Notes: generated by a model from the letters alone, not told the origin. DNA of 64,000 bases from Bryobacterales bacterium (GCA_965226245.1 CBDDCL010000015.1:3574515-3638514); one strand, 5' to 3'; positions 1,238 through 57,174 are shown, counted from the stretch's first letter. Numbers and translations: made by a program.

Positions 1238-1438
1238 TCATTGCCCGGCCCCTTCGCCCTCGCTCTTCAATAAGACCGCGAATATTCGGTGGTCGCCGAC
1301 CTTGCGTACCAGCTCGCGGAGCGCCTCCAGAAGCTTGTCGAGATTCGTGGTGTATCTGGCCGCGATCTCTGAAGCTTCGACGAGGATTTCGAGCGTTTCG
1401 GCCTCTTGCTGGACCGCTGCCGTGAATGGGGACGGCAT
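1238..1438 (-). pseudogene. 66-aa GAF-like helical fragment, probably a truncated sensor/phosphatase gene
   Basis: ATG 3 nt after the deoC stop. LEILVEASEIAARYTTNLDKLLEALRELVRKVGDHRIFAVLL resembles the first helices and strand of a GAF domain and then stops. Confidence 0.45.
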
Positions 1439-2587: not shown

Positions 2588-5296
2588 TCACTCCACGGCC
2601 AGGGTCACCACGGGACTGGCTTGTCCCGCGATCGAAACCACGAGGTCGGCTTCCCCGGCGGGCAGGCCTGCCGGTACCACGGCATTGACCTGATACAGAC
2701 TCGTAAAGCCCGGGGTCAGGCCCGCGAACAGTACCCTTGCCGGGCGGCCGCCAATCGTTACCGTCACATCCTCCGCCGTCCGCGCCAAAGGCGAGGCGGG
2801 CGCCGGCTCCCCGCTGGCCACTTCGGGAGAGACGGCGCCTAACCCCGTGCCGTAGATGATAATGGCATCGCCAGCCTTAACCGGCCTCGCCAGCGTCACG
2901 ATCTGGAAATTCGCATTTTGAATCGAGCCGGGACCGCTGCCGGAAGCGTTCCGCGTAAATACTCCCGGTCTCGCCACGTTGACCAATACAGGTTCCGGCA
3001 CCCCCAGACTGCCGGCGTCGGTGCGCCGAACCAGCAGCGGCAAGCTCTCGTTGAGGCGGTCCGCCACCTCGAATGGAAGAACGGCGTTGACTTGGTCTTC
3101 GCGGGAGAACAAGATCGGCAGAGGCCGCCCGCCTAGAATCATTTGCGTCCCCGCCAACTCGGTTGGCAGCGGGACGCTGCTTGCTGAGCGGCCCCCACCG
3201 CTGGCGGGTTCGCTCGACAGGTTGCTGCCGAAGATCGAAACGATCGTTCCGGGCGCAAGCGGGTCCACAACGAAGCTCGCGCCATGGACCACCCCTCCCG
3301 CTGCGATCCGCGGCGGTGAGGAGGAGTTGGGACTTACCGACAGCGCTTGCGTGAGCGCTGCGCTGATGCCCGCGGGGTCGGTGGCGGTTACGGTGACGGT
3401 GGCCATCGAGGGCAGGTCCGCCGCGGGTACGTTCCAGGTTGCGGTCCACAGGCCCGAACCCGCGTGCCCTAATGCCAGACTGGGGGAAGCGATACTGGCG
3501 AAGTCGACGACGACCGAGCCGTCCGTCATCTTGTTGGCGCAGTTGTCCACAACTTCCACCTCGATGGCGGCCGGCCAGCCGGCGGGAATCGAAGACGTGC
3601 CTCCCAGAACCTTGAACACCGGAGCAACCTCCGTTCGAGAGCATCCGGCCTGAGACACGGGATTGGGTGGCTTGAGACTTGTCACAGCTTCTGGAGAGAC
3701 CACGAGCAGCACTTCCACGGCGCGGGTCAGCCCGCCATCGAATTGGAGCCTCAGCAAGCCCCGATAGATACCGGCGTCGAGCCCTTCGAGCAGAACTTCA
3801 ACACCAATGTTTGTAGGTTCACCGGGGCTGACAATTCCCTGCGCGGCTGTGGGCGCCAGCCAGCCGCCTCCCGTCAACGTCAGCCCTTGCAGGGTGAAAG
3901 CGATCGAGCGGCTGGTCAGATTCGAAATTCGAAAACTTTGCGGGGAGGGCGCGGGGTCCGCGGGCGTTGAAGCGAAGATCAACCCCCTGGGATCAACGAT
4001 GGGCCCAGGGTCCCGATCTCCTTCGAGAAGATTCAGCACCACTGTCGTGAACCGCGGCGAGTTAGCTGCATCGGGGGCCGCCACTTCCAGCAGACCGTAG
4101 TAGACGCCTGGGGTCAGCCCTTGCGTACTGACAGCGACATCCACTGTCGCGGGAACTGAGGGTTCGCTGGCGCCCGTTAGGGGGGTTGCAGTCAGCCAGC
4201 CGCCGCCCGACAGCGTATCCAATCCGATGTCCCATGCCATCACACCCAACCCATCGTTGAACACGCGCAGATTCTGGACGGGCACGGCTCCGCCTCCCGC
4301 CACACCCGTGAATGTCAGTCCCCTTTGCGAGAGACGAAGTAACTGCGAACGGCTGCTGATCGCCATGGCCACGGGCGCCACCAGATCGCAGGTGGGACAC
4401 GTCTGCTGCGCTGCGGCGTTCGCAGGGGTCGCGATCACGATCTCTCCTAAATAAGTATCAGGAGCCAGGCCTGCAGGGTTCGCCTCGACCGTCAATGTCA
4501 CCGGCGCCTCAACAGTGACCTCTCCCGAAAGCGGCGAGACGGAAAGCCACGGGCTTGAAGACAGCCCGGCCGCATCGACTTGAAAGCTCGCCGAGCCTCC
4601 GCCCTTATTCAAGACGAGAAGCCTTCGGACGGCCGCCGGCGATTGCTGGACAAAGGAATACGACAGGCGGCTGGGTCGCACGCTCAGCCGCGGCTCCAGT
4701 GAAACAATACCTGCCCCGTGCAATGCGACGGTGTGCGAGCACTCCGCAATCCCTTCATCTCTGATATCGAAGAACGTAATGGTTCCTTCGACAGGACCCG
4801 GCTCGAACGGCGTAAAGAACAAAAACAGGTCCAATTCTGTTTCGGAAATCCGCTCGAATGTTTCGAGAACATCAAACTCTTCGTGGCTGCGGTTGGCTTG
4901 AATGAGCAAGGCCGTTTCACTGCCTACAACCCGAAGTGTTTGCAAAGGCGATTGGACGTCAACAAGAACGGGCCCGAAGCCGATCGCCGGCGGTGCGACG
5001 GAAACGATTCTGCAGGCCTGCTGCTGCGGCCCGAAGATGCTGACCGTCCAGTTGTCGATACCGCTGTTGCGACTGTCCTCACCGTCCCCCCCCAGTCCAG
5101 GAGACACCTCACCGCCGCTGGCCGGAAAGTTACTGACGGAAGCAAAGCCGAATTGGAGAGGCGGCGCCTTATCAGAGAAATTCAGGCACCTCGGTCCATC
5201 TCCAGCGACTCGCGTAAAGTCTCGTGTTTCGAGACCGCTTCGGCCGAACGGAGTCCAGTCGCGTCTCGAGATGCGATCTCTCGGGGAACGGTAATA
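2588..5296 (-). pseudogene. 3' part of a large secreted/surface protein (BACON-like repeats, Solibacter-type TIGR03437 C-terminal domain), separated from its 5' part by a MITE
   Basis: Frame of ORF 2588..5107 stays open up to the element end at 5296. It has repeated WLSVSPLSG/WLTATPLTG BACON-like units and the C-terminal LAPGTIVSIFGSNL...QVNAVLPF...FAGLTPGFTSLYQVNAVVP signature. Confidence 0.85.
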
Positions 5297-5828
5297 CCTG
5301 AATTATGCATTGCGGGGTGCACCTGAGGAGGGCTGAGCCGCAAGGGACCATTGGGGAACGCCCGAAAACATGGGGTAAAAAGGTAGGCTGGCAAAGATTC
5401 CAGCTTCACCAGCCAACCCAAAGGAGGTCACCCAAATGGTTACCAAGCGAAAACAGCATAGCTCCCAAAGGGCCGTCAAACAAGGCCCAGCCGTGACGGT
5501 CTCGCAGCCCAATAAAATCGGGGCATCCACGCCTTGACAACTTCCGCGGCAGGAAGCCGACTCCCTACGGCGGCTTGCCGCCGGTAGTCGAGAGGGCGTT
5601 GATCTGAGAGCCTGGCTATGCGCTATGCATAAAATTTTATGCACTGGCCGCAACGTACTGGAAACACGCCACTTCGGAGCGGGGTTTTGCCGACGCGGAT
5701 TCTGGGCGGGAGGGGAAACCGGGGACGGAGAAGCCAAAAGACCAGTTGCCGAGCTCCCACCTTACGACGGCCGTCAAGCCGCTACGAACGCAGCCGCACT
5801 CGCAAAGCGAATCTGTGCATAATTCAGG
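5297..5828 (+). mobile_element. 532-bp non-autonomous IS1380-family derivative (MITE-like)
   Basis: Terminal IRs CCTGAATTATGCA / TGCATAATTCAGG. 5-bp direct repeat TAATA at 5292-5296 and 5829-5833. Contains the degenerate transposase start (MVTKRKQHSS...PNKIGASTP*) and 3' end, both similar to the full element at 46604-48401. Confidence 0.92.
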
Positions 5829-9138: not shown

Positions 9139-10299
9139 TCACCCACCCCAAGCCCCGCGGCCGGCGTCGAGGAGAACAGCGAGTGTCTGCTCGGCGGCAC
9201 GCTGCCAGGTGCGGCGTTTGGCCTTTTCGAGTCCGCGGGCGACGATCTGCTCGCGGCGGCCCAGGTCTCCAAGCACCGTTTTCATGCCCTCGCGGATCGC
9301 TTCCGTTGAGGCCGGGTCGAAGAACACGGCCGCGCCGTCAGCGATCTCGCGCAGCGGTGGGATGTCGGAGCAAGCCACCGGCAGACCGGCCGCCATCGCT
9401 TCGAGTACGGGAATCCCAAAGCCTTCAAAGGTTGATGGGAAAACCAACGCTTCAGCGAATTTGAACAGTGCTAACAAAACTCGCCGGGGCTGCCATCCCA
9501 GCAAGTGGACGCGCTCGTCGAGGCCTGTGCGGCGCAGATGCCGCTGGACAGCCTTCCAAGATTTTCCCGGCAAACCGGCCACCACGAGATGCTCGATGAA
9601 ACCATGTTCCCCGAGTTGCTGGTAGGCGTCCAATAGCCGCTCCCAGTTTTTGTGCGGGTGGAGGGTGGATACCGCCAGCAAATAGCGCTGGGGTGGAATT
9701 CCGGCCTCGGCGAGCAAGGACTCCTCGTAGAACGGGTTGCTGCTCAGACCCAAGAAGTCAGGTTCAACGCCGTGATGAATGGCCCGGACCTTGGACGCCG
9801 GCACGCCGTAGGCTGTAACGACGTCGCGTTTCGAGGCCTCTGACGGCGTGATGAGCCAGTGAGAATGGCGCACGCCGGACCAGACCATCAGATCCCAGGC
9901 CAGGCGCTCGAGTGCGCCAAAATTGCCGGGCTGCTTCTTGTGCTGCAGGTCATGGATGACGGTGACCTTGCGGGCGCTCGTCAGCAGCGGCGCTGTAAAG
10001 CCCGGGGAAAACATCACGTCGAGACGGCGCGAAAACGCTTGTACGGGAAGCACGGTCTGTTCCCAAAGCAGGCGCGCGGGACGAAAGCGGGCGGGCAGAC
10101 GGGCCACGACCGGCTGGAAATTCCGCGTCCGCGGACACAAGTCCTGGCCCGTCTCTCGATTCGTAAAGATGAAGTATTGGTTGTGCTGGTCAATCGCCGC
10201 CAGCGCGGAAAGCAGATTCCGGATGTAGATTTCGGTGCCTCCGACGCCGCCGGGGATCAGGTAGAGCGCGTTCACGCCGATTTTTAATGGACGGGGCAT
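9139..10299 (-). CDS. Glycosyltransferase family 4
   Basis: IGVNALYLIPGGVGGTEIY, VTVIHDL, HPHKNW, FPSTFEGFGIPVLEAMAAGLPVACSDIP. Likely start MPRPLKIG at 10299 rather than 10461. Confidence 0.92.
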   Translation of the reverse strand: MPRPLKIGVNALYLIPGGVGGTEIYIRNLLSALAAIDQHNQYFIFTNRETGQDLCPRTRNFQPVVARLPARFRPARLLWEQTVLPVQAFSRRLDVMFSPGFTAPLLTSARKVTVIHDLQHKKQPGNFGALERLAWDLMVWSGVRHSHWLITPSEASKRDVVTAYGVPASKVRAIHHGVEPDFLGLSSNPFYEESLLAEAGIPPQRYLLAVSTLHPHKNWERLLDAYQQLGEHGFIEHLVVAGLPGKSWKAVQRHLRRTGLDERVHLLGWQPRRVLLALFKFAEALVFPSTFEGFGIPVLEAMAAGLPVACSDIPPLREIADGAAVFFDPASTEAIREGMKTVLGDLGRREQIVARGLEKAKRRTWQRAAEQTLAVLLDAGRGAWGG

Positions 10300-10358
10300 G
10301 CAGGCCGCGGCGGGGGAACCACCATGATAGCTTTTGCTGTCGCTTCGACTAGCAAACT

Positions 10359-10790
10359 GGACCCCGCCTGCTACAATGAGAACGGTGGGAACAAGCAAGG
10401 TAGCGACAAGCTGATGTGGCGCACGTCTCCAGACGTGCCGTGTCGCCATTCCTGGCGACATGTCTTAGTTTGTCTTAGCTGGCAGTGGCCCCCGGCCCGA
10501 GTCACCGCCAATCCGCCAGCCGAGGCCAGCGACAGGAATACCTCAAATCTGCAAGAAAGCCTGTCGTTTTACTAGGGAACCTGCCACGGTCCCACCGCCG
10601 ACTGCAACCCCGGTCACTGAAAACAAAAACATTATCGGTTGACACCATGACGAGGCGTCGAAAATGGCCCAGATCCTGCCATATTCTGCCATTCTCTGCC
10701 ATTTCCGGACATTTTGTAAAGAAAATTTATACCTCACCCGGCAACCTCTTTGTTTCCACCACTTCGCCAGGGACCGGCCACTGACATCCC
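10359..10790 (+). repeat. Dispersed ~430-bp element, copy 1
   Basis: Colinear with 18271-18693 over its whole length, with identical blocks such as GGACCCCGCCTGCTACAATG, TGTCTTAGTTTGTCTTAGCT, GTCACTGAAAACAAAAACATTATCGGTTGACACC and CAACCTCTTTGTTTCCACCACTTCGCCAG. Confidence 0.9.
10369..10377 (+). promoter_or_regulatory. Extended -10 box TGcTACAAT at the start of repeat copy 1 (same at 18281-18289)
   Basis: TGnTACAAT. The same 9-mer lies just upstream of coaD (63021-63029, minus) and of the 57174 gene (57205-57213, minus). Confidence 0.55.
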
Positions 10791-10989
10791 GGCATGCCGC
10801 TTTGCCCAGCATAATGCAGGTCAAACCGAGCCGCGCACGCCATTCTCTGCCATTTCCGGACATTTTGTAAAGAAAATTTATACCTCACCCGGCAACCTCT
10901 TTGTTTCCACCACTTCGCCAGGGACCGGCCACTGACATCCCGGCATGCCGCTTTGCCCAGCATAATGCAGGTCAAACCGAGCCGCGCAC
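10688..10989. repeat. Exact 151-bp tandem duplication
   Basis: 10688-10838 is repeated at 10839-10989 (GCCATTCTCTGCCATTTCCGGAC...GAGCCGCGCAC). Confidence 0.92.
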
Positions 10990-11001: not shown

Positions 11002-11090
11002 TTGCCGTGGCGCCGGAAAGTAGCTAGGGACCGGCTAGAGAGCCGGTCCCTGCGGCCGGGCCGCGAACGGAGAGATGCTAAGATCCTAGC

Positions 11091-12104
11091 TTGCAAGCCC
11101 CCCGCGCGTCGGTCATCATTCCTACTATTTCAGCGGGCGAAAAGCTGGCTCGTTGTCTTCACTCCTTGCGGAATCAGACTTTCCGGGAGTTCGAGACGAT
11201 CGTCATCGACAATAGCGGGCACGGGGCCGCGGCCGAGATTGCCGCCGCCTCCGGCGCAAAACTCATCGAGAACAAGACCAACGCTGGCTTTGGCCGCGCG
11301 GTGAACCAGGGTATCGAGGCCTCCGAGGGTGAGTTCGTCTGCACGCTCAATGACGACGCTTACCCGGCGCCTGAGTGGCTGGGGAGTTTGGTCAGCACTT
11401 GCGAGAACCAGGAGCGTACCGGAATGTGCGCCTCGCAAATTCTTCTGAGGGATCAGCCGGGGCGGCTCGATTCCACGGGACTTGACATCTATGGCGACGG
11501 GACGACGAAGCAGCGCGGGCGCCGCCGGCCCGGAGATCCCTCCGGCGAACCGAGCGAGGCCTTGATCCCGAGTGGCTGCGCGGCTCTTTACCGGCGCTCG
11601 ATGCTGGACCAAATCGGCCTCTTCGACGGCGACTACTTTCTCTATTGCGAGGATACGGATCTCGGCTTGAGGGGCCGCCTGGCGGGCTGGAATTGCCTCT
11701 ATGTCCCGGGGGCCGTGGTCGAGCACGACTATTCGTCCTCGGCCGGACGGGCATCGGCCGATAAAGCTTACTTTGTGGAACGCAATCGCCTCTACACGGT
11801 CATCAAAGTATTCCCTGTTGGCCTATGGCCGCTGGTCCCCTGGTATTCCGCCTGGCGATACGCCGCGCATCTGTGGGCGATGATCCGGGGGCGGGGCCTA
11901 GCCTCTGAATTCGCCGGCGGCGGGGAAAAGTGGTGGCGTCTTGCAATAATAGTATTGTCTGCTCACTGCAGCGTCTTGCCGCAAGGAGCCAGGCTGCTTC
12001 GCAAGCGCCGCGCGATCCAGCGCACGGCGGTCCTCAGCGGGTGGTCTTTCTGGCGGCTCCTGAGGCGGCACTACACTAGGGCGAGCGAGATTGCGGCGCA
12101 GTAG
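11091..12104 (+). CDS. Glycosyltransferase family 2
   Basis: SVIIPT, VIDNSG, NAGFGRAVNQG, LNDDA, FDGDYFLYCEDTDLGLR. Confidence 0.92.
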   Translation: MQAPRASVIIPTISAGEKLARCLHSLRNQTFREFETIVIDNSGHGAAAEIAAASGAKLIENKTNAGFGRAVNQGIEASEGEFVCTLNDDAYPAPEWLGSLVSTCENQERTGMCASQILLRDQPGRLDSTGLDIYGDGTTKQRGRRRPGDPSGEPSEALIPSGCAALYRRSMLDQIGLFDGDYFLYCEDTDLGLRGRLAGWNCLYVPGAVVEHDYSSSAGRASADKAYFVERNRLYTVIKVFPVGLWPLVPWYSAWRYAAHLWAMIRGRGLASEFAGGGEKWWRLAIIVLSAHCSVLPQGARLLRKRRAIQRTAVLSGWSFWRLLRRHYTRASEIAAQ

Positions 12105-18087: not shown

Positions 18088-18270
18088 AGTATCATTATTG
18101 ACTAACCCCAATACTGTCACCCAGGAAGAATATGACACCCAGCCGCGTGAACGCGGCTTTGGCTTCCAGCCTCAAAACCCTGCTTCCGGTAACCGATCAT
18201 CAAAATATTCCCGCGGCCCTGTTTCTTCAAGCACTTAGACTCCATTCGCCCGCGCCGCAAGCCAAAAAAC

Positions 18271-18693
18271 GGACCCCGCCTGCTACAATGCGAATAGTGG
18301 AAAGAAGCTAAGGTGGCGACAAGCTAATGTGGCGCACGTCTCCCGGCGGGCCGCGTCGCCATTCCTGGCGACATGTCTTAGTTTGTCTTAGCTAGCAGTG
18401 GCCGCTGGTCCGAGTCGCCGCCAATCCACCAGCCGCGGCCAGTGACAAGAATACCTCAATCCGCAAGAAAACCCGTCGTTTTGCCAGGGAACCTGCCACG
18501 GTCCCGCCGCTGGCTGCACCCCGAGTCACTGAAAACAAAAACATTATCGGTTGACACCCATGACGAGGCGTCAAAATGGCCCGAAACCCTGCCATTCTGT
18601 GCCATTTTCGGCCATTTTGTAAAAAAAATTTATACCTCAGCCGACAACCTCTTTGTTTCCACCACTTCGCCAGACCGTGGCCGCTGACATCCC
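18271..18693 (+). repeat. Dispersed ~430-bp element, copy 2
   Basis: Colinear with 10359-10790; lies between the tilS start and the fabV stop. Confidence 0.9.
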
Positions 18694-18705
18694 AGCGTCG
18701 CTTGA

Positions 18706-20817: not shown

Positions 20818-21025
20818 ATTGCCTCCGGTTCAACATTCTAACCAGTTTCCAGAGCGAGGCTGTTTTGGGCTGCGGCTCAGGCGGCCGCCAATCCACTTTG
20901 GTGCTACCAGGCCCCCAGGTCGAATAGTGTTGAAGGGCGATGATAATGTCCCCTTGAGAGGGCGATAGAAATGTCCCCTAATCTAAGGCTCCAGAAAGGA
21001 GGAGCCGAGATTGGAGAGGACATGG

Positions 21026-22291
21026 ATGAACGACAAGGAATTGAGACGGGGCGAGGTGCTGGGCCGGGTGAAGCGAGGCGAGTTAAAGCTGAGCGAGGCG
21101 GCGCAGGTGCTCGACATCAGTTACCGCCAGAGCAAGCGGATCTGGAAGCGCTACAGCGCGGGAGGGACAAAAGCATTGAAGCACGGCAACGTGGGCCGGG
21201 TATCGAACCGGGCCAAGCCAGCGGAAGTTCGCAAGCGAGTGCTGCAACTGGTGCGCGAGAACTACTCCGGCGAACCGCACGAGCGCTTCGGGCCTACTCT
21301 GGCGGCCGAGCATTTGCGAAAGGACCACGATCTGCAAGTATCGGTGCGGGCACTGCGGCTCTGGATGCTCGCCGAGGGTCTGTGGAGCCGCCGCCGCAAG
21401 CGCCAGCCGCATCGCCAGCGGCGGCAGCGCAAAGCGCACTTCGGGGAGCTGATCCAGGTCGACGGCTCGCACCACCGATGGCTCGAAGATCGCGGCCCGA
21501 AAGGTTGCCTGATGAACTTCGTCGACGATGCGAGCGGCCGGGCGCTGTGCCGCTTCTCGAGCGAAGAGACAACTTGGGCGGCGGCCGATCTGCTCGAAGC
21601 CTGGGTGCGTCAATACGGCGTTCCGAAGGCGTTGTATTGCGACTGGAAGAACGTCTACAAGCGCCAGCCGACGTCGCGCGAAGCGCTGGAAGGCATCGAG
21701 CCCGAGACGCAGTTCGGGCGCATGTGCGCCAAGCTGGGGATCCGCATCATCGCGGCATCGTCGCCGCAAGCCAAGGGCCGCGTGGAGCGGCATCACGGCA
21801 CCCATCAAGACCGCCTGATCAAGAAGATGCGACTGCAAGGTATCTGCGATTACGAGGCGGCGAACCGCTATCTCGGCGAGCAATATCTGGGGGAACACAA
21901 CGCCAAATTTGTCTGCGAGCCAGCGGCGGAAGCGGACTTTCATCAGCGCCCGCCCAAGCGTCTGGACTTAAAGTGGGTGTTCTGCTTGGAGGCCGAGCGA
22001 GTCGTCTCCAACGATCGGGTGGTCCGTTTCGAGAACCGCTTCTTACAGTTGAAACCGAAGCGCAATCAGGCTCTGGGGGCGGGGGGGAGAGTCACCGTGC
22101 AGCAAGCGCGCCAGGGCGAGTTGCAGGTGATCCACGAAGGCCGAGCGGTGGCCTTTGAAGAGATCACGTGGCCCGAGCCGAAGCCGCGCCCCAAGCCGAA
22201 ACAACAAGCGGCCCGGCAGCGGCCCAAGCCGGCGGCGGACCACCCTTGGCGTAAGTTGCTGCGGTCGAAAAAACGTGCGGCGACGACATAA
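21026..22291 (+). CDS. DDE transposase (IS1202/ISNCY type, rve-like core)
   Basis: N-terminal HTH, FGPTLAAEHL, GELIQVDGSHHRW, VDDASG, YCDWK, SSPQAKGRVER..HQDRL. Confidence 0.92.
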   Translation: MNDKELRRGEVLGRVKRGELKLSEAAQVLDISYRQSKRIWKRYSAGGTKALKHGNVGRVSNRAKPAEVRKRVLQLVRENYSGEPHERFGPTLAAEHLRKDHDLQVSVRALRLWMLAEGLWSRRRKRQPHRQRRQRKAHFGELIQVDGSHHRWLEDRGPKGCLMNFVDDASGRALCRFSSEETTWAAADLLEAWVRQYGVPKALYCDWKNVYKRQPTSREALEGIEPETQFGRMCAKLGIRIIAASSPQAKGRVERHHGTHQDRLIKKMRLQGICDYEAANRYLGEQYLGEHNAKFVCEPAAEADFHQRPPKRLDLKWVFCLEAERVVSNDRVVRFENRFLQLKPKRNQALGAGGRVTVQQARQGELQVIHEGRAVAFEEITWPEPKPRPKPKQQAARQRPKPAADHPWRKLLRSKKRAATT

Positions 22292-22300
22292 AAAAGGCAG

Positions 22301-22441
22301 GGCTATGGAAATGACGGGACGGATGGAAAGCGTGGAAAACCTCAGCGAGCAGCGCAGAGGGTTCGCATCGCAACGACAGGTTTCCCACCCTTCCCACCGT
22401 CCCTTGGAAATCGCTGACGCGATTTCCACATTCCCACAGCC
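22301..22441. other. Multi-stem palindromic cassette inside the IS right end
   Basis: Outer arms 22301-22313 / 22429-22441, long hairpin 22316-22341 / 22379-22403, hairpin 22405-22428. Confidence 0.7.
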
Positions 22442-22634
22442 CCGACGACGACGATTATCTCTTACGAACTTACAAACAACAAAACGAAGGGGACATTTCT
22501 ATCGCCCTACCGCCGGGGACATTTCTATCGCCTCTTGACACCCCCAGGTCGAATAGATGACATTGGACACCAGGGATAGTAGACTGCTCACAGCAGGTCT
22601 TGCCGCCGATCTGACCGCAGGCTCGTCATGCAGT

Positions 22635-26948: not shown

Positions 26949-27036
26949 TCTTCGTCCTGAGGCCTTTGCTTCGCTCGCAACGGCTGACCCACTCTTCGTC
27001 CTGGGGCCTTTGCTTTGCTCGCAACGGCTGACCCAC
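26949..27036. repeat. 44-bp tandem repeat (2 copies)
   Basis: TCTTCGTCCTG(A/G)GGCCTTTGCTT(C/T)GCTCGCAACGGCTGACCCAC at 26949 and 26993. Confidence 0.85.
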
Positions 27037-28773: not shown

Positions 28774-28849
<76 letters not shown>

Positions 28850-28928
28850 GTTGTCTGCGTTGCTGATTCAAGAACGATTTCCAGGAAAATCCCAGGAGTG
28901 GATTGGGGGTAAAACTCGAACGGTTTCG

Positions 28929-29003
28929 GCGGGAGTAACTCAATGGTAGAGTCACAGCCTTCCAAGCTGTTGGTTGCGGGTTCGATCCCCGTCTCCCGCT
29001 CCA
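28929..29003 (+). tRNA. tRNA-Gly(TCC)
   Basis: GCGGGAG acceptor, loop CTTCCAA, GTTCGA, CCA. Confidence 0.96.
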
Positions 29004-29038
29004 GGCTGTAGCTTCCCTAAGCCGCTGGGCAGTGACGG

Positions 29039-29114
<76 letters not shown>

Positions 29115-29211
29115 GCGACCCGGACAGGCTGCCCTGTGACACGCGGCCGCGCGGTCACGAAGTAGTGGCTAGCGAACAGGAAGATCCCGGTCAAGGAGAG
29201 TATTGAGTTAA

Positions 29212-29298
29212 GGACGGGTAGCCGAGTGGTCAAAGGCGGCAGACTGTAAATCTGCTGGACACAGTCCTACGGAGGTTCGAATCCTCCCCCGTCCACCA
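29212..29298 (+). tRNA. tRNA-Tyr(GTA)
   Basis: GGACGGG acceptor, loop CTGTAAA, long variable arm, GTTCGAA, CCA. Confidence 0.96.
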
Positions 29299-29376
29299 CG
29301 ACGCCCGTTAGAGCAAGACGCTGAAAAGCACGGCACGGGACCTCGAACCGCAGAGGTCCAAATCGGAGAGCAAGCG

Positions 29377-30564
29377 ATGGCGAAGGAGAAATTTGACCGC
29401 AGCCTGCCGCACGTGAACGTGGGGACAATCGGCCATATTGACCATGGCAAGACCACGCTGACGGCGGCCATCACGAAGGTTTTGCAGAAGAACGATTCCA
29501 GCGTGTCGTTCCGCTCGTTCGACTCGATCGACAACGCCCCGGAAGAGAAGGCCCGCGGCATCACCATCGCCGTGTCGCACGTCGAGTACCGCACGTCGAA
29601 CCGGCACTATGCGCATGTCGATTGCCCCGGCCACGCCGACTACATCAAGAACATGATCACCGGCGCGGCGCAGATGGACGGCGCCATCCTGGTGGTGGCG
29701 GCGACCGACGGCCCGATGCCCCAGACCCGCGAGCACATTCTGCTGGCGCGGCAGGTGGGCGTGCCCTACGTCGTGGTGTTTCTCAACAAGTGCGACGCGG
29801 TGGACGATCCCGAGCTGCTGGAGCTGGTGGAGCTGGAAGTGCGCGAGCTGTTGACGAGTTACGACTTCCCGGGCGATGACATTCCGGTCGTGCTGGGCTC
29901 GGCGCTGAAGGCGCTCGACGGCGACTCCGCAGCCGAGCAGGACATCGCGAAGCTGATGCAGGCGGTGGATGATTACATCCCGACGCCGAAGCGCGAGAAG
30001 GACAAGCCGTTCTTGATGCCGATCGAGGATATTTTCTCGATATCGGGGCGCGGCACGGTGGTGACCGGGCGTGTCGAGCGGGGCATCGTGAAGGTGGGCG
30101 AGGAGATGGAGATCGTCGGTTTCCGCGAGACGCAGAAGCGCGTGATCACGGGCGTGGAGATGTTCAAGAAGCTGCTGGACCAGGGCGAGGCGGGCGACAA
30201 CGTGGGGCTGCTGGTGCGGGGCTTGGAGAAGGACGAAGTGGAGCGCGGGCAGGTGGTGGCGAAGCCCAAGTCGATCACGCCGCACACGAAGTTCAAGGGC
30301 GAAGTGTACGTGCTGAAGAAGGACGAAGGCGGGCGGCACACGCCGTTCTTCAACGGCTACCGTCCGCAGTTTTATTTCCGCACGACGGACGTGACCGGCG
30401 TGGCGCAACTGCCGGAAGGGACGGAGATGGTGATGCCAGGCGACAACGTCGGCATGAGCGTGGAGCTGATCAGCCCGGTGGCGATGGAGAAGGGACTGCG
30501 ATTCGCCATCCGTGAAGGCAGCCGCACCATCGGCGCCGGCACGGTCGCCGAGATTATCGAGTAA
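29377..30564 (+). CDS. tuf: Elongation factor Tu
   Basis: [44 protein letters not shown]. Confidence 0.99.
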
Positions 30565-30638
30565 GCGGAAAGAAACCGCCCGGCCCGTGAGACGGCTCAA
30601 GAAACGCCCGGCGCGGAGAGCGAAACGAGGAGACTGAC

Positions 30639-30791
30639 GTGGCACGAGAGACCATCATTCTAGAGTGCACGGAAACGAAGGACCGCAACTACACGACCAC
30701 GAAGAACAAGAAGAAGACTCGCGGACGCCTGGAGCTAAAGAAATATTGCCCGCGCCTGCGCAGGCACACTCTGCACCGGGAAACAAAGTAG
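30639..30791 (+). CDS. rpmG: 50S ribosomal protein L33
   Basis: Manual translation from GTG after GAGGAG: [50 protein letters not shown]. Confidence 0.96.
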
Positions 30792-30865
30792 CGGGTCGGC
30801 AAGTACGTTCGGACGCCCCGGTTTTTGTGAGTTCCACGGAGGTTCAGCATCGGCGGAACGAGTTC

Positions 30866-30940
30866 AGGGGCGTAGGTTCAACGGTAGACCAGCGGTCTCC
30901 AAAACCGCGAGTGGGGGTTCGAATCCCTCCGCCCCTGCCA
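30866..30940 (+). tRNA. tRNA-Trp(CCA)
   Basis: AGGGGCG acceptor, loop CTCCAAA, GTTCGAA, CCA; usual position before secE. Confidence 0.96.
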
Positions 30941-31297: not shown

Positions 31298-32566
31298 GTG
31301 AGCGAATTAAACAAACCGGCGGAACTCAGCGAATCCGGGCAGGAAGAACCGGCCAGCGAGCAGCAAGCTGCCGCGGGGGCAGGCGAGGGCGTGCCTAAAT
31401 CCGGGGAAACTCCCGGGGGCGAGGCTGTGGCGTCTGCTTCCGGGGAGGAAGGAACTTCGATCGACGAGGAGACCGCGGAGTTGCCTTCACCATCAGCGGC
31501 GACTGTTCCCGAGCCGGCGGTTTCTTCCGCGACGGACGCCGAAAGGTCCGAAGCTTTGCCGGCTGAAGCCGAGGGTGAGGCGGCGGGCGGGGCGGGGGAA
31601 TCTTCAGAGTCCGCCGCGACCGAGCCCGGGGGTGCTGTCGAGGCCGAGCCGCAAGACGCACCCGAGGAAGTAGCGGCGGAAGCCGGCGAAGAGCCGGAAG
31701 GACCAGCGGAGGAGGTTGCCGCGGAGACCGAACCGGCTGTTGAAGCGGAGGCTGCCGCTGAAGCGGCGGCGTCCGAAGCTGAAGCCGAGGCCGAGCCTGC
31801 TGCGGAGGCCGAACCGGCTGTTGGGGCGGAGGCTGGCGTTGAAGCGGCGGCACCTGAAGCTGAAGCTGAGGCTGAGCCCGCCGCGGACGCAACGCCAGGC
31901 GCCGAGGCCGCGCCGACCCCAGAGACCGAACCGGCTGTTGAGGCAGAGGTTGCCGCTGAAGCCGCGGCGGCCGAACCTGAAGAGGAAGCTGAGGCGGAGA
32001 CCGCGACCGAACCCAAGCCGGCCGGAGTGCCGGGGATCGATTGGTACATCATCCACACCTATTCCGGATTCGAGAACAAGGTGAAGGAGAGTCTTCGCAC
32101 GCGCGCGGACGCTTTCGGCTTTAACGATCGCATCGGCGAGATCCTGATTCCAACCGAAGACGTTGTTGAGATGCGCAGCGGGAAAAAAATCACGAGCAAG
32201 CGAATGCTCTATCCGGGCTATGTCTTGCTGCAACTCAAGATGGACGACGAGCTGTGGCACATAGTCAAGAACACGCCCCGCGTGACGGGTTTCGTGGGCA
32301 GCGGGCCGACGCCGACTCCTCTGACGGCGGGCGAGGTGAACCAGATTCTCTATCGCCAGACGTCCTCGGTTGAAAAGCCGCGGCCTAAGTTGACGTTCGA
32401 GCGAAGCGACCGGGTCAAGATCATCGACGGGCCGTTCACGAACTTCACCGGCACCGTGGAGGAGGTCAATCCCGACCGGAACACGCTGAAGGTCATGGTC
32501 ACGATTTTCGGACGAGGCACTCCGGTCGAGTTGGAGCATTTTCAAGTCGAGAAAGAGCGGCTCTAG
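31298..32566 (+). CDS. nusG: Transcription termination/antitermination factor NusG with ~245-aa acidic low-complexity N-terminal extension
   Basis: Core [14 protein letters not shown]...YPGYVL...[10 protein letters not shown]...[14 protein letters not shown]...[10 protein letters not shown]. The upstream open frame is Ala/Glu/Pro-rich. Confidence 0.93.
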
Positions 32567-46603: not shown

Positions 46604-48401
46604 CCTGAATTATGCACAGGTTCGGCGTAGCCATCGCCGATGGAGTTGTGGCGGTAGCGGCAGTCGTGTCAACTCAGTGATTTAGCAAGTCGTCTTTTCT
46701 GCTGTTTCCTTCCCGGTTTGAGCCGCCTCCCAATTCCGGGCGGGCAAAAGCGGGCTCGCAAACGGCATGTTCCCAGTAGCTTGCGGCCCGTGCATAAAAT
46801 TCTATGCGCAGCGCCCCTCAACGCAGCGCACCCTCCACCACCGGCGCGCAGCTCGATCCCGGCGGCGCCATCGCCCGCAGCCGCCGCATCAGCCGCTCGA
46901 ACAGGCCCTGCTCCTGGTACTGATCGCTGTAGCTGATGCCCGTTCTGCCGGCATGCCGCCAGATCTTGGCCGCCACGAACAGAAAGCGCAGCCGCGCCGT
47001 CGCCAGGGTGGTGTGGCGCAGCTTCTCCGGGGTGGCGTCGGCTTCGCGCTGGAACAGCAGCAGCCAGCAGTTGAGGTTGTAGGCCAGCATGACCAACTGA
47101 AAGTGATTGCGGTTCATGTCAAAGCGGCGCGAAGGATGGGCCGCCAGCCCGGCGTCGTTGTTGGCTTCTTTGATGAGGTTCTCCGCCCCAGCCCGCTGGT
47201 TGTAAAACCACGCCACCGCCGCGATCGGCTCGGTGAGGTTGGTGACGAACACGCGGTAGGTGTAAGCGCTGGTTGCAAACAACTGATATTGCTCGACTTC
47301 GTCGGTTTCCGGCTCCTTTTCATAACGCAGCGCGACAAAGCGGCAGGCCCTGCCCCAGCCTTGCGGCTGGTAGAGGAATTCGCACTCCGCCGCAGCGTCG
47401 CTGTGGGGCGAGGGCTTCCATTCCGCTTGCTGCAACTGCTCGACCAGTCGCCTGGTCTTGCGCGCCACGATGACGAACTGACAATGCGCTTGTTCGTAGG
47501 CTGCCACCGCTTCCCAGCAATAAAAGCCGGAATCGGCCCGCGCCAAGATCCGCTTCACACTGGCCGGCAAAGCCTGGAAAGCACTTTCGAGGTGCGCCGC
47601 GATCTCTTTGCCCGTGGGCCGGTCGCCATTGTGCAACCCGCCCATCAGGTATTCGCGCGTCTCGGCCAGGAAGGTCAGTATCGGCTGGTAGCTGCGCTTG
47701 CCCTTGTTCTTGGGGTTGTAGCTCTTGCGCCCGCCCATCTGCTGGCCGTAGAGGGTGTGCACGGTGGTGTCGGTGTCCAGCGTCACCGTGGTCAACCGCA
47801 CGTTGGCCGCCGCCCAGGCTCGTTCGCGCAGTTGGCGCTGCATCGACAGGATCTGCCGCGCCACGTTGAGATGCAGCGAGGCCAGAAAGCGCCACAGCGT
47901 GGATTGCGGCGGCAGCCGCGTCACTTGCAAGATGCCGGTCAGGATGGGGTCGCGCGCGATGAAGCGGAGTTGGTTGAGCCGCGCAAAGCCGACATAGAGG
48001 CCCAGCACGAGGGCCAGCACAAACTGGTAGAGGCTCATCACACGGGTGATTCGTTTGACGCTGAGGGTTTGTTCCAGCAGCTCTTGGAAGCCGAGTTTTT
48101 CGAGCAGGGTGGCGACCGGCAGCAGGCCGCCGTAGGGAGTCAGATTCTTGCCGCGGAAGTGATAGGGCGTGGAAGCCCCGATTTTATTGGGCTGCGGAGC
48201 CGTCGCGCCGCGGCCTTGTTTGGCGGGGTTTTTGGAGCTATGCTGTTTTCGCTTGGTAACCATTTGGGTGACCTTCTTGGGGTTGGCTGGCGAAGCTGAA
48301 ATCTTTGCCAGCCTACCTTATTACCCCATGTTTTCGGGGGTCGCCCAATGGTCCCTCGCGGCACAGCCCTCCTCAGGTGTACCCGCAGTGCATAATTCAG
48401 G
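46604..48401 (-). mobile_element. Complete IS1380-family insertion sequence, 1798 bp
   Basis: IRs CCTGAATTATGCAC / GTGCATAATTCAGG; 5-bp direct repeat TATCA at 46599-46603 and 48402-48406. Confidence 0.93.
46818..48263 (-). CDS. IS1380-family DDE transposase
   Basis: LTPYGGL, LDTDTTVHTLYGQQ...SYQPIL, RADSGFY, FYNQRAGAENLIKE. Confidence 0.93.
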   Translation of the reverse strand: MVTKRKQHSSKNPAKQGRGATAPQPNKIGASTPYHFRGKNLTPYGGLLPVATLLEKLGFQELLEQTLSVKRITRVMSLYQFVLALVLGLYVGFARLNQLRFIARDPILTGILQVTRLPPQSTLWRFLASLHLNVARQILSMQRQLRERAWAAANVRLTTVTLDTDTTVHTLYGQQMGGRKSYNPKNKGKRSYQPILTFLAETREYLMGGLHNGDRPTGKEIAAHLESAFQALPASVKRILARADSGFYCWEAVAAYEQAHCQFVIVARKTRRLVEQLQQAEWKPSPHSDAAAECEFLYQPQGWGRACRFVALRYEKEPETDEVEQYQLFATSAYTYRVFVTNLTEPIAAVAWFYNQRAGAENLIKEANNDAGLAAHPSRRFDMNRNHFQLVMLAYNLNCWLLLFQREADATPEKLRHTTLATARLRFLFVAAKIWRHAGRTGISYSDQYQEQGLFERLMRRLRAMAPPGSSCAPVVEGALR

Positions 48402-48837
48402 TATCACACAACATGTTTCAGCCAATCGTGCTGATATCTCAGAGGGAATCCGCCGCTACAAAGATAAAGTGTTTCGCTCGGAATAGGCGTGCCGCAAGTA
48501 CTACCCGGTTTGCCGCCATGTTGACATGGCGCTGTAGCGTTTGTTGTAGAATGATAGCACCTTGTTGGGGAGCTTAACGAGCGATCGGGCAAGTAGCGGC
48601 GAAACGGATCACACCAGTCGAGGCTGGCTACAGTGTTCTTAAGCGCGCCGACAGTTACCCGAACCAGGGGCACTGTGGCAACCAGGAGGCTGGCGGGGAA
48701 CGCGGACCTGGCGCTTAAGCCGGCGGTTCTTCTGGGAAGCGCAGGGTTGACCAATGAGGCGCGCCTCTCGGCTAGATTGCCTCGACACCGCGCACCGAGC
48801 GTCGGGTGAAGCCGGGGAAGTTCGGGAACCAATTACA

Positions 48838-56160: not shown

Positions 56161-57174
56161 CTACTCACCATTTCCGGAGCTAGCCTCCTGCCCGCGCGCG
56201 CCCGCGAGCATGCCCTCCATCGAGTAGTTACCCTCGTGGCAGGCGTACTCGTAGATCGCATCCTCGCTCTTTTTGAGCGGGATCATCGCCGTCCAGGGGC
56301 GAGTCCAGGTCGTCGGATCTTCCACCGTGACCTCGTACTCCAGCGTCTCGGGTCCGGCGCGCGTGAAGCGTTCCACCAGCCGCAGGTTCTCCGCCGATCC
56401 TCGGAACGAGCTCTTGGGCGAGTAATTCCGGGTCTCGACGACCAGCGTATCGCCCTCCCAGCGGCCGCGCGAGTCCCCGTGCCACTGCCGTAACCGCTTG
56501 TCGATGTGCGGCCGTCCGTCGAGCGGGATGATGCGCACGTCGTGGATCATCTCCGTCAGGATGGCCACCGAGCCGGGTGTCTGGAAGATTTGATAGTAGC
56601 TGTTGTAGCCGGCGCCCAGCCGGGGCACGCCGAACGTGATGCAACGCTCGCCGAGGCTGCGATCCTCGGGTCCGCGAGGCGGACGGCGCCGGTTGGCGGT
56701 TTGTTCGGCGTGTTTGGCCTGCCCCTCGGGAGTCAGTTCGGGAATCCTGCCGTCGGGCGGATCGATAACCAGCGAGGTTCGGCTGTCCGAGAACTCCCGC
56801 TCGACGACCCAGAACTGGTTGTAGTTGCCGGTTTGGGCATCGCTCGAGGTGAAGCTCTTGGCATCGCTGAGGGCAGCGGCAAAGACGCTGTCGCCGAAGG
56901 CGGCGTCGCCCGCCTCGTTACTGAAGAGCTTGCCGGCTCGCTCCTTGAGCTCGGCCAGCTCTTCGTCGCTGAGCGCGGCCTTGCCAGCCAGCTGGTCCGG
57001 CCGCTCGAGCGGCGTGGCGTTGTTGTTCGCCCAGACTCCCTGGAGATCCGGCTGGCCGTCCGGAGTTCGGGGCGTGGTCCAGGAATCCCCATCGCCTGCC
57101 GCGAGCGGGAGCGCGGCGACGATCGAGACTAAGCTGGTCAGGATCGCGAGCCGAGCGAACGATCGATTGCACAT
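56161..57174 (-). CDS. Uncharacterised secreted protein (PDLxGxW ... YACHEGN family), paralog 1
   Basis: GAGGAG RBS, signal peptide, RTPDGQPDLQGVW, ERC, WHGDSRGRWEGDTLVVET, YEYACHEGNY. Confidence 0.85.
   Translation of the reverse strand: MCNRSFARLAILTSLVSIVAALPLAAGDGDSWTTPRTPDGQPDLQGVWANNNATPLERPDQLAGKAALSDEELAELKERAGKLFSNEAGDAAFGDSVFAAALSDAKSFTSSDAQTGNYNQFWVVEREFSDSRTSLVIDPPDGRIPELTPEGQAKHAEQTANRRRPPRGPEDRSLGERCITFGVPRLGAGYNSYYQIFQTPGSVAILTEMIHDVRIIPLDGRPHIDKRLRQWHGDSRGRWEGDTLVVETRNYSPKSSFRGSAENLRLVERFTRAGPETLEYEVTVEDPTTWTRPWTAMIPLKKSEDAIYEYACHEGNYSMEGMLAGARGQEASSGNGE

Follow-up and report, generated by a model that had tools for sequence, protein, structure and literature searches.

Two copies of a gene-less element in one genomic window

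We analyzed a 64,000-nt stretch of DNA from a Bryobacterales bacterium (GCA_965226245.1 CBDDCL010000015.1:3574515-3638514), hereafter the window, which carries two copies of an intergenic element. Copy A is flanked by a divergent GT4 gene and a GT2 gene, and copy B separates the start of tilS-ftsH from the end of fabV. Direct reading and pairwise alignment show that the copies are colinear and that the element is gene-less and non-coding. It belongs to a previously undescribed family of dispersed non-coding repeats in Bryobacterales-type Acidobacteriota, one that is modular and has a defined orientation. In a full copy, the modules follow one another in the order AT-rich upstream stretch, Block P, purine-rich segment, double hairpin, variable GC-rich stretch, and Blocks X, Y, and Z (coordinates in Table 1).

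Copies A and B are ~88% identical across the aligned block and 85% identical across the 3' 330 nt. Their shared core differs by 54 substitutions (35 transitions and 19 transversions), three 1-nt indels, and one 10-nt indel. No open reading frame (ORF) is common to both, every one of the six frames contains stops in at least one copy, and the substitutions show no 3-nt periodicity or codon-position bias. We also counted as non-coding evidence a 1-nt indel in a T-run inside Block Z of the family alignment. A coding gene or pseudogene was rejected because there is no common frame and no codon periodicity, and a template/variable repeat pair like that of a diversity-generating retroelement was rejected because the substitutions in the A/B list, judged by eye only, are not adenine-specific.

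A preliminary description of this DNA had reported two diverged, colinear copies with no gene, which is confirmed at 85-88% identity. It drew the limits of the element too short: copy B begins ~105 nt further left, and copy A runs from ~10346 to ~10815. A family profile built with nhmmer matches copy A at 10332-10811 and copy B at 18243-18705, with a second match (10836-10962) over a tandem duplicate of the 3' end of copy A. The 151-bp duplicated unit contains part of a set of phased repeats plus Block Z, and the duplication must be very recent because its two units are 100% identical.

A dispersed family

BLAST, the nhmmer profile, and a protein search identified 11 further copies, whether full, truncated, or internally deleted, on 11 unrelated contigs. 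Loci outside the window are given L numbers. Full copies are present in L055, L049, L052, L032, L059, L072, L074, and L075. The defective ones are L024 and L073, both 5'-truncated (the 5' region is replaced in L024 and the 5' half is missing in L073), and L033, which is internally deleted. The metagenome loci came from a scan for the double hairpin that yielded 51 loci, among which the BLAST and nhmmer searches were then made. L073, L074, and L075 were found by protein search with the 99-aa ORF of the window, at 76-87% identity at the translated level. The search could retrieve them because gene callers predict spurious ORFs on the element; its only "homologous proteins" are three ORFs without Pfam matches called on other element copies. 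"Hypothetical proteins" of 160-175 aa without a Pfam match are annotated on the copies in L073-L075 and L072, an annotation artefact that also serves as a handle for finding copies.

Every copy has its own locus, and no two share one. The L074 copy sits between a patatin gene and a cpaB-tad operon, the L075 copy between a DUF4198 gene and a 3-keto-disaccharide hydrolase gene, and the L073 copy adjoins an insertion sequence (IS). Homologues of the window's TilS place it in Bryobacterales. Identity among copies ranges from 52 to 85%, and blocks P, H, Y, and Z are near-invariant nonetheless. The 3' modules, 85% identical between A and B, are only 52-65% identical to those of the metagenome copies, with the blocks almost unchanged.

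Searches of known families and collections gave no match to the element. With Rfam 15, only tRNAs (five) pass the gathering threshold in the window, none of them in the element; copy A gave chance-level matches of 13-17 bits at E<=10, and six loci with full copies gave no match inside the element at E<=1. The plasmid (PLSDB) and phage (INPHARED) collections contained no match, and none of the IS copies within the fetched loci matches the element, although no dedicated IS-end library was searched. Scanning a genome collection with TGTCTTAGTTTGTCTTAG returned just chance 18-mers in unrelated phyla, and this motif proved window-specific. Look-ups of the exact TilS, GT4, and FabV proteins of the window, and of a protein designated P0001, found no record. 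In the literature, we found no description matching the element. The preliminary description had proposed a candidate family to be sought by BLAST and nhmmer, and had allowed that it might instead be a known Rfam family, a known IS end, or only two copies with neither transcript nor covariation; the outcome was a family of more than two copies, with no match to Rfam or to the IS of the fetched loci.

A conserved promoter-like block

The A-tract-rich upstream module, ~100-150 nt long, is found in copy B (from ~18163), L074, L075, and the metagenome copies and is missing in copy A. Block P, which reads ...AACCGAAAAACCGGACCCCGCCTGCTACAATG in the family alignments, comes next. The 19-mer GGACCCCGCCTGCTACAAT occurs exactly twice in 64 kb (0.02 expected). 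The shorter TGCTACAAT occurs four times in the window (0.17 expected), and its other two occurrences are 20-35 nt upstream of the start of coaD and of the gene at 57174. The TGCTACAAT block is near-invariant (nine of the ten copies that retain it) among copies that are only 52-65% identical elsewhere. Nine of ten copies have the sigma-70 extended -10 sequence TGnTAnAAT, a motif that also precedes three protein genes. It is reasonable to read TGCTACAAT as a putative extended -10 promoter, as first proposed for this 9-mer, whose reported occurrences before coaD and the 57174 gene proved correct.

The promoter 20-mer GGACCCCGCCTGCTACAATG recurs exactly at 1304-1323 (-) of L078, a viral contig in IMG/VR, where it follows an A-tract and has an ORF ~60 nt downstream. 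The rest of the element is absent from L078, and viral contigs show the promoter 20-mer alone. This occurrence supports promoter function but also marks Block P as a reusable module.

Downstream of Block P, the purine-rich segment varies from 30 to 300 nt among copies and contains GGGGACA/GCGACA/GACAAG motifs, with other repeats sometimes inserted. GACA and TGACA are enriched on the sense strand. Repeats of the CCGTGAGGGAGCGGTTTCC type are inserted into the variable segment of some copies, and L055, L033, L020, and L043 are among the loci where other repeat families share the intergenic mosaic.

A double hairpin selected on the sense strand

The family double hairpin spans 50 nt and is followed by ATGTCTT. 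Hairpin 2, GTCGCCA-TTCC-TGGCGAC, is identical in copies A and B, and the 19-mer GTCGCCATTCCTGGCGACA occurs exactly twice in 64 kb (0.02 expected). Hairpin 1 shows compensatory changes at three of its seven pairs across 38 distinct sequences, a covariation score matched by none of 500 shuffles and by no slid control. Counted over both stems on the sense strand, G.U pairs outnumber A.C pairs by 52 to 8, which assigns the fold to the same strand as a transcript from the putative TGCTACAAT promoter. The hairpin pair is thus a structure selected on the sense strand. Hairpin 2 with its tail (TCTTAGTTTG/TGTCTTT) passes a simple terminator scan in copy A, L055, and L074, but not in copy B. At L072 (~11470-11520, -), the hairpin 2 loop carries an insertion of ~36 nt that is itself hairpin-like, and the stem is kept.

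The consensus fold of the whole unit consists of these two hairpins alone. Both had been noticed in the preliminary description, which also called for a covariation test; its further structural proposals fared less well. The outer stem, GACAAGCT/TAGTTTGTC, exists in the window copies alone and is found neither in L074 and L075, the copies most closely related to them, nor in the rest of the family. Similarly, the second TGTCTTAG of a repeat thought invariant is restricted to the two window copies and is absent from L074, L075, and the wider family. A mutually exclusive, switch-like pairing with an upstream (G/A)GCGACA is window-specific or lacks covariation. A helix closing the 5' and 3' ends was no better for cognate ends (-11.9 kcal/mol) than for non-cognate ends (-10.4 kcal/mol).

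The double hairpin is not specific to the element, as it also occurs as a solo module in the 51 metagenome loci, with second copies inside loci. Using a codon-usage model that reproduces the window genes to call genes in these loci, we found the upstream gene to be co-oriented with the solo hairpin in 28 cases vs 8 opposite (P = 0.0012), whereas the orientation of the downstream gene was mixed (22 vs 14). The median distance from stop codon to hairpin 2 was 91 nt; solo copies mostly lie 30-130 nt after the stop, and several are 15-45 nt from it. Located near the stops of co-oriented genes, the solo hairpins therefore behave like repetitive extragenic palindromic (REP) elements and terminators. 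The double hairpin is high in copy, extragenic, and mostly 3' of genes, as expected of REP elements by function. By sequence it departs from them: neither GTAG nor CGTC stands unpaired in the consensus GACGTGGCGC...CCGTGTCGCCATTCCTGGCGACAT, and the CGTG that precedes hairpin 2 takes part in pairing. Some solo double hairpins form closely spaced, REPIN-like inverted pairs, and one pair is arranged in tandem, 76 nt apart (L035 174-242, L048 754-895, and L040 3187-3281).

An unstructured 3' module with near-invariant blocks

The 3' module of ~330 nt is A/C-rich and structure-poor (A 0.29, C 0.31, G 0.20, and T 0.20), with a C/G ratio of 1.25-1.8 in every copy. Motifs in the element are strongly strand-biased, with TGACA at 32 vs 4 and AAAAC at 60 vs 8 on the sense and antisense strands. 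The phased G(A/C)CAT motif has seven matches in the window (0.5 expected), all of them within the element copies. Family copies carry three or four such repeats, which are found at the homologous place in L032, L049, L055, L073, L074, and L075, and the 10-nt indel between A and B arises because copy B has one phased repeat fewer. Block Y and the tail of Block Z form an imperfect inverted repeat at the same place in 11 of 11 copies, in which the mismatches are A.C on the sense strand and no compensatory change is seen. Promoter-like hexamers are also present in this module: CTGACA-N16-18-TATAC/TACACT on the sense strand and, in the window subfamily, TTTACA-18-GAGAAT on the antisense strand.

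No conserved RNA fold of the 3' half was found on the sense strand (-0.9 kcal/mol), and on the antisense strand there is just the invariant Y/Z inverted repeat. The right end of the element has no terminator or conserved 3' structure. The proposal of a structured RNA of ~430 nt is therefore not borne out, because the 3' 330 nt has no conserved fold and the double hairpin is a generic, abundant module found 3' of genes. From its sequence, the 3' module looks like either protein-binding DNA or unstructured RNA.

Resemblances to sigma-54, sigma-28, and ECF promoters, boxA, ops, IHF sites, the DnaA box, parS, and the 16S 3' end were assessed by eye and set aside as partial or not kept across subfamilies. 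In L055, the full copy lies 130-260 nt upstream of a PhoD-like phosphatase gene (3805-3934 / 4063), and its phased repeats read TGTCA on the other strand, resembling the Pho-box core; this is a single locus and may be a coincidence. A Pho regulon was rejected, as L055 is the one locus concerned and the repeat motif is nowhere else in the window.

Table 1. Positions of the element copies and their parts in the window
Feature	Coordinates	Strand	Description	Basis
Element copy A	10346..10815	+	5'-truncated, without the ~105-nt AT-rich upstream stretch	Two-copy alignment and family profile; left limit where homology to empty-site relatives L069/L079 ends (10344/10345); right limit from L074/L073 alignment
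Promoter block A, GGACCCCGCCTGCTACAAT	10359..10377	+	Extended -10: TG at 10369-10370, TACAAT at 10372-10377; predicted start near 10384	
Purine-rich variable segment	10384..10420	+	GACA-type motifs; AGCGACA duplicates the 3' arm of hairpin 2	
Hairpin 1, copy A	10421..10438	+	GCACGTC-TCCA-GACGTGC, intact	
Hairpin 2, copy A	10439..10462	+	10-bp stem CGTGTCGCCA / TGGCGACATG, loop TTCC, then T-rich tail TCTTAGTTTG	
Block Y, CACTGAAAACAAAAACATTATCGGTTGACA	10616..10645	+	Left arm of imperfect inverted repeat, partner 10734-10758	Near-invariant in family
Phased repeats, copy A	10677..10712	+	Four 10-bp-phased TGCCAT/GGACAT (TGACAT in most other copies)	
Block Z, GACATTTTGTAAAGAAAATTTATACCTCACCCGGCAACCTCTTTGTTTCCA	10708..10765	+	Longest near-invariant stretch, ~50 nt in family	9-11 copies otherwise 52-70% identical
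Tandem duplicate	10839..10989	+	Perfect 151-bp repeat of 10688-10838 (3' end of copy A plus 23 nt of flank)	Repeat search, 100% identity
Element copy B	18163..18705	+	Full length, including 5' AT-rich extension	L074/L075 alignment extends homology to ~18163
Promoter block B	18271..18289	+	Exact match to copy A block	
Double hairpin, copy B	18334..18375	+	Hairpin 1 with one mismatch and one wobble; hairpin 2 exact	
Phased repeats, copy B	18590..18615	+	Three 10-bp-phased TGCCAT/GGCCAT	

Empty sites and turnover

Both window copies are absent from the corresponding sites of related genomes. Between tilS and fabV, copy B is absent in L010, L011, and L012. In L010, the tilS-ftsH and fabV DNA is 90-95% identical to the window, and the gap between tilS and fabV contains ~150-220 bp of unrelated sequence, whose similarity score to the element (30) is not significant against shuffles (26.7 +/- 4.2). 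In the more distant L011 and L012, this gap is 66 bp. Copy A is absent between GT4 and GT2 in L069-71 and L079, where the GT4 protein is 87-90% identical and the flanking DNA ~84-90% identical. In the GT4|GT2 comparisons, homology ends at window 10344-10346 both times and resumes at 11038 or 11073. The filler at the empty sites in L010, L069, and L079 is unrelated sequence of 146-188 bp; because of it, exact junctions cannot be defined, and no target duplication or excision scar is readable at these sites.

No inverted repeat joins both ends of the element in the four copies inspected, and no direct repeats flank it in nine copies, which agrees with the preliminary description. Palindrome-associated transposable elements (PATEs) derived from IS200/IS605 have subterminal hairpins at both ends and insert 3' of a fixed tetra- or pentanucleotide; in the element, hairpins are confined to the 5' third, with none at the right end. 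Y1_Tnp was not found among the few neighboring ORFs scanned with Pfam. Around the copies, the intergenic DNA is a mosaic in which IS copies, group II introns, and further repeat families are interspersed. Turnover or mobility is indicated by the scattered and truncated copies, the empty orthologous sites, and the surrounding mosaic; mobility is suggested by the non-syntenic copies and the empty orthologous sites.

The mosaics also contain recognizable neighbors of the element. Group II intron domains (Rfam RF02001 and RF01998) at L024 1585-1852 (+) abut the 5' side of its element copy. The sequence GCGCCGGAAAGTAGCTAG, which occurs in the window (11011-11050 region) and in L073 (~10110-10136), belongs to another repeat family in these intergenic regions, and a hairpin, GGGACCGGCT-AGAG-AGCCGGTCCC, is located at window 11027-11050.

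A candidate small transcription unit and its alternatives

Our leading interpretation, which we hold tentatively, is a dispersed cassette in which the 5' part forms a small transcription unit that stops at the hairpins. We read the 5' module in this way because the putative promoter is followed, 30-300 nt on and on the same strand, by a hairpin pair that marks transcript 3' ends elsewhere. The extended -10 (TGCTACAAT, with ~100 nt of A-tract-rich DNA before it in full copies) would fire rightwards and give a short purine-rich RNA of ~85-95 nt in the window copies and up to ~300 nt elsewhere. This RNA would end or be stabilized at the double hairpin and its UGUCUU tail, which would make the 5' module a small RNA (sRNA) gene. 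The downstream 330 nt would most likely be DNA or unstructured read-through RNA that provides protein-binding or promoter-like control of adjacent genes. The cassette as a whole may spread or turn over between intergenic regions through trans-mobilization or recombination among mosaic repeats.

Several points weigh against this interpretation. We infer the start site, 3' end, and expression of the 5' unit, and the invariance of hairpin 2 is partly forced by the search pattern that collected the loci. The U-tract after hairpin 2 is imperfect and is missing from many solo copies, while canonical U-tract terminators do occur in these organisms (L033); the hairpins may therefore stabilize or process RNA instead of terminating it. 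An sRNA would leave the best-conserved part, Block Z, with no defined role. The A>T and C>G skew spans the whole element, including the DNA upstream of the promoter, and fits a longer transcript or a DNA-level bias equally. Regarding mobility, we found no transposase, terminal repeats, target duplication, or clean junction, and the empty sites hold filler instead of the product of a precise excision.

We consider it unlikely that one long non-coding RNA of ~400-600 nt covers the whole element, with the hairpins as an internal or 5' stabilizing domain and the A/C-rich tail doing the work, as a protein-titrating sponge or in Rho loading. The strand-asymmetric composition over the full length, the repeated sense-strand motifs (TGACA and AAAAC), the conservation of Blocks Y and Z beyond promoter needs, and the weakly U-rich tail after hairpin 2 all fit such an RNA. 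Its right end, however, would have neither terminator nor conserved structure, the closing helix is unsupported, and the consensus fold contains the two hairpins alone. The skew is also present in DNA upstream of the promoter, and the Y/Z inverted repeat has its A.C mismatches on the very strand that would be transcribed.

Similarly improbable, in our judgment, is a purely selfish, non-autonomous mobile DNA, a long REP/BIME- or PATE-like element mobilized in trans whose promoter and hairpins are incidental or serve transposition, with no RNA function. This explanation accommodates the unrelated loci, the absence of the element at orthologous sites in relatives with ~84-95% identical flanking DNA, the truncated or deleted derivatives (L073, L033, L024, and copy A), and their embedding in repeat, IS, and group II intron mosaics. 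The hairpin module is also abundant, several loci having two or more and some of these being inverted pairs (L035 and L048). It fits poorly with the lack of terminal inverted repeats, target duplication, and a right-end hairpin, and no Y1/Y2 transposase is consistently nearby. Blocks that stay invariant at 52-65% overall identity between genomes argue for selection beyond recent proliferation. The G.U bias indicates a selected single-strand fold of defined polarity, though single-stranded DNA intermediates could also explain it.

The neighboring genes bear on a further alternative, the switch-like cis-acting leader or attenuator for the gene at right proposed in the preliminary description, which we now regard as quite improbable. 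The right-hand neighbor is co-oriented in 8 of 12 copies, and in L052 and L032 its start codon falls inside the last few nt of the element; in the window subfamily, the upstream (G/A)GCGACA is a second version of the 3' arm of hairpin 2 and thus a potential competitor. However, the other four copies (copy B, L059, L072, and L073) face the 3' end of a convergent gene, the competitor motif is a mismatched GGGGACA in most copies and is deleted in L075, no covariation was found for alternative pairings, and 330 nt of unstructured sequence separates the hairpins from the gene. Only two hairpins are conserved, with no consistent downstream gene class, which is not the pattern of a riboswitch or structured cis-leader. 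Left-hand neighbors are divergent or tandem; the head-to-head arrangement with a minus-strand gene seen at both window copies is not family-wide. The neighbors (GT2, a tad pilus operon, PhoD, L21, a symporter, an outer-membrane barrel, sulfatases, and an ICL-family enzyme) are unrelated in function, and a common regulon of the downstream genes was rejected for this reason. The mixed orientations and unrelated neighbors therefore argue for an autonomous unit and against a gene-specific leader.

The least probable alternative by far is that the 3' module acts as a DNA switch, invertible or bound by a recombinase, in which the imperfect 14-25-bp inverted repeat (Y and Z-tail) brackets ~85-125 bp with the phased repeats: the repeat is at the same place in all 11 copies with promoter-like hexamers within, and several neighbors are surface-structure genes (the glycosyltransferase cluster, tad pilus, and outer-membrane receptors), but the inner segment has the same orientation in 12 of 12 copies, the repeat has short, imperfectly matched arms and no associated recombinase gene, and housekeeping genes are also among the neighbors.

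Implications

Acidobacteriota are among the most abundant soil bacteria, and their non-coding repertoire is almost unexplored. To our knowledge, almost no sRNAs are known in the phylum. The most far-reaching version of the small transcription unit interpretation is a portable sRNA gene: a promoter-sRNA-terminator unit plus a protein-binding module that disperses through acidobacterial genomes without encoding a protein, and rewires the expression of its neighbors, possibly by titrating a GACA/TGACA-binding regulator or RNA-binding protein. We think this version distinctly doubtful; if true, it would represent a mobile regulatory RNA family in Acidobacteria. Transcription of the cassette would place it among the first multi-copy families of sRNAs or regulatory cassettes described for the phylum, and even as mere selfish DNA the element accounts for annotation artefacts.

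Other consequences concern genome annotation and evolution. A REP-like double hairpin that marks many gene 3' ends in Bryobacterales-type genomes can aid annotation and operon or terminator prediction, and can serve as a lineage marker in metagenomes. The composite cassette puts a strong-looking, conserved promoter and phased repeats beside unrelated genes, among them, in this window, those of the essential tilS-ftsH operon and of a glycosyltransferase cluster. The comparisons made here also document that intergenic regions are replaced wholesale between close relatives.

Other features of the window

Several further repeats were recorded away from the element. An IS-like insertion at 20961-22532 has 37-nt imperfect terminal inverted repeats and an ORF of ~421 aa without a Pfam match, and is absent at the same place in L010. 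The segments 5315-5699 and 46735-48384 contain inverted repeat pairs that are 78-89% identical and 41-43 kb apart. Positions 48680-48776 are 86% identical to part of an insertion of ~850 nt (L011 20336-21190) that interrupts a Ser/Thr kinase gene after codon 23; this is possibly another mobile non-coding or intron-like element. In the window, tRNAs in the order Thr-Gly-Thr-Tyr and then Trp form a cluster at 28774-30940, repetitive coding sequence rich in Ala and Glu spans 31562-32013, and a tandem repeat of 44 bp occupies 26949-27036.

Comparison with known systems

The closest likeness of the hairpin module is to REP elements and bacterial interspersed mosaic elements (BIMEs). In a survey of GTAG- and CGTC-tagged families, Acidobacteria are not reported to have any REP family (Di Nocera et al. 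2013, PMC3733652). Like the REPs and BIMEs described there (PMC3733652), the double hairpin is abundant and intergenic, lies 3' of co-oriented genes, occurs singly, in tandem, or in inverted pairs, and is plausibly transcribed. In contrast, it lacks the unpaired GTAG/CGTC tag and consists of two distinct hairpins in fixed order instead of one 20-40-nt palindrome, and the composite of 0.45-0.8 kb with a promoter and unstructured tail has no REP counterpart. A RAYT (Y1 HUH) gene is a feature of REP and REPIN systems, and none was seen among the few neighboring ORFs scanned here. Miniature inverted-repeat transposable elements (MITEs) are characterized by terminal inverted repeats and a target-site duplication, and the element has neither.

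Pneumococcal BOX and Neisseria Correia/NIME elements are modular, length-variable, gene-less intergenic units that can bring promoters or RNA hairpins beside unrelated genes. Correia elements end in inverted repeats and duplicate a TA target, and BOX elements are built of boxA-B-C modules. The element is alike in its modular behavior but lacks their defining features and has no sequence relationship to them. Closer to home, the Solibacter-1 motif is a multi-copy candidate RNA from Solibacter usitatus that its authors suspected to be a repeat (Weinberg et al. 2010, PMC2864571). It comes from the same order and is multi-copy like the element, but its sequence and three-stem junction (PMC2864571) are unrelated, and BLAST of the Solibacter-1 sequence against the window and all loci gave no match.

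Two further comparisons concern function. Putative mobile promoters are homologous, promoter-bearing intergenic segments upstream of non-homologous genes, and the element likewise occurs in such positions within and across genomes; it differs in that a third of its copies have no gene to drive and a terminator-like hairpin directly follows its best promoter. Finally, although the length of the "body" varies tenfold and conservation is highest outside the putative sRNA, the element resembles sRNA genes with Rho-independent terminators and multi-copy sRNA families in its strong-looking putative promoter, its short, unstructured, purine-rich body, its GC-rich hairpin with a U-containing tail, and its several paralogous copies per genome.

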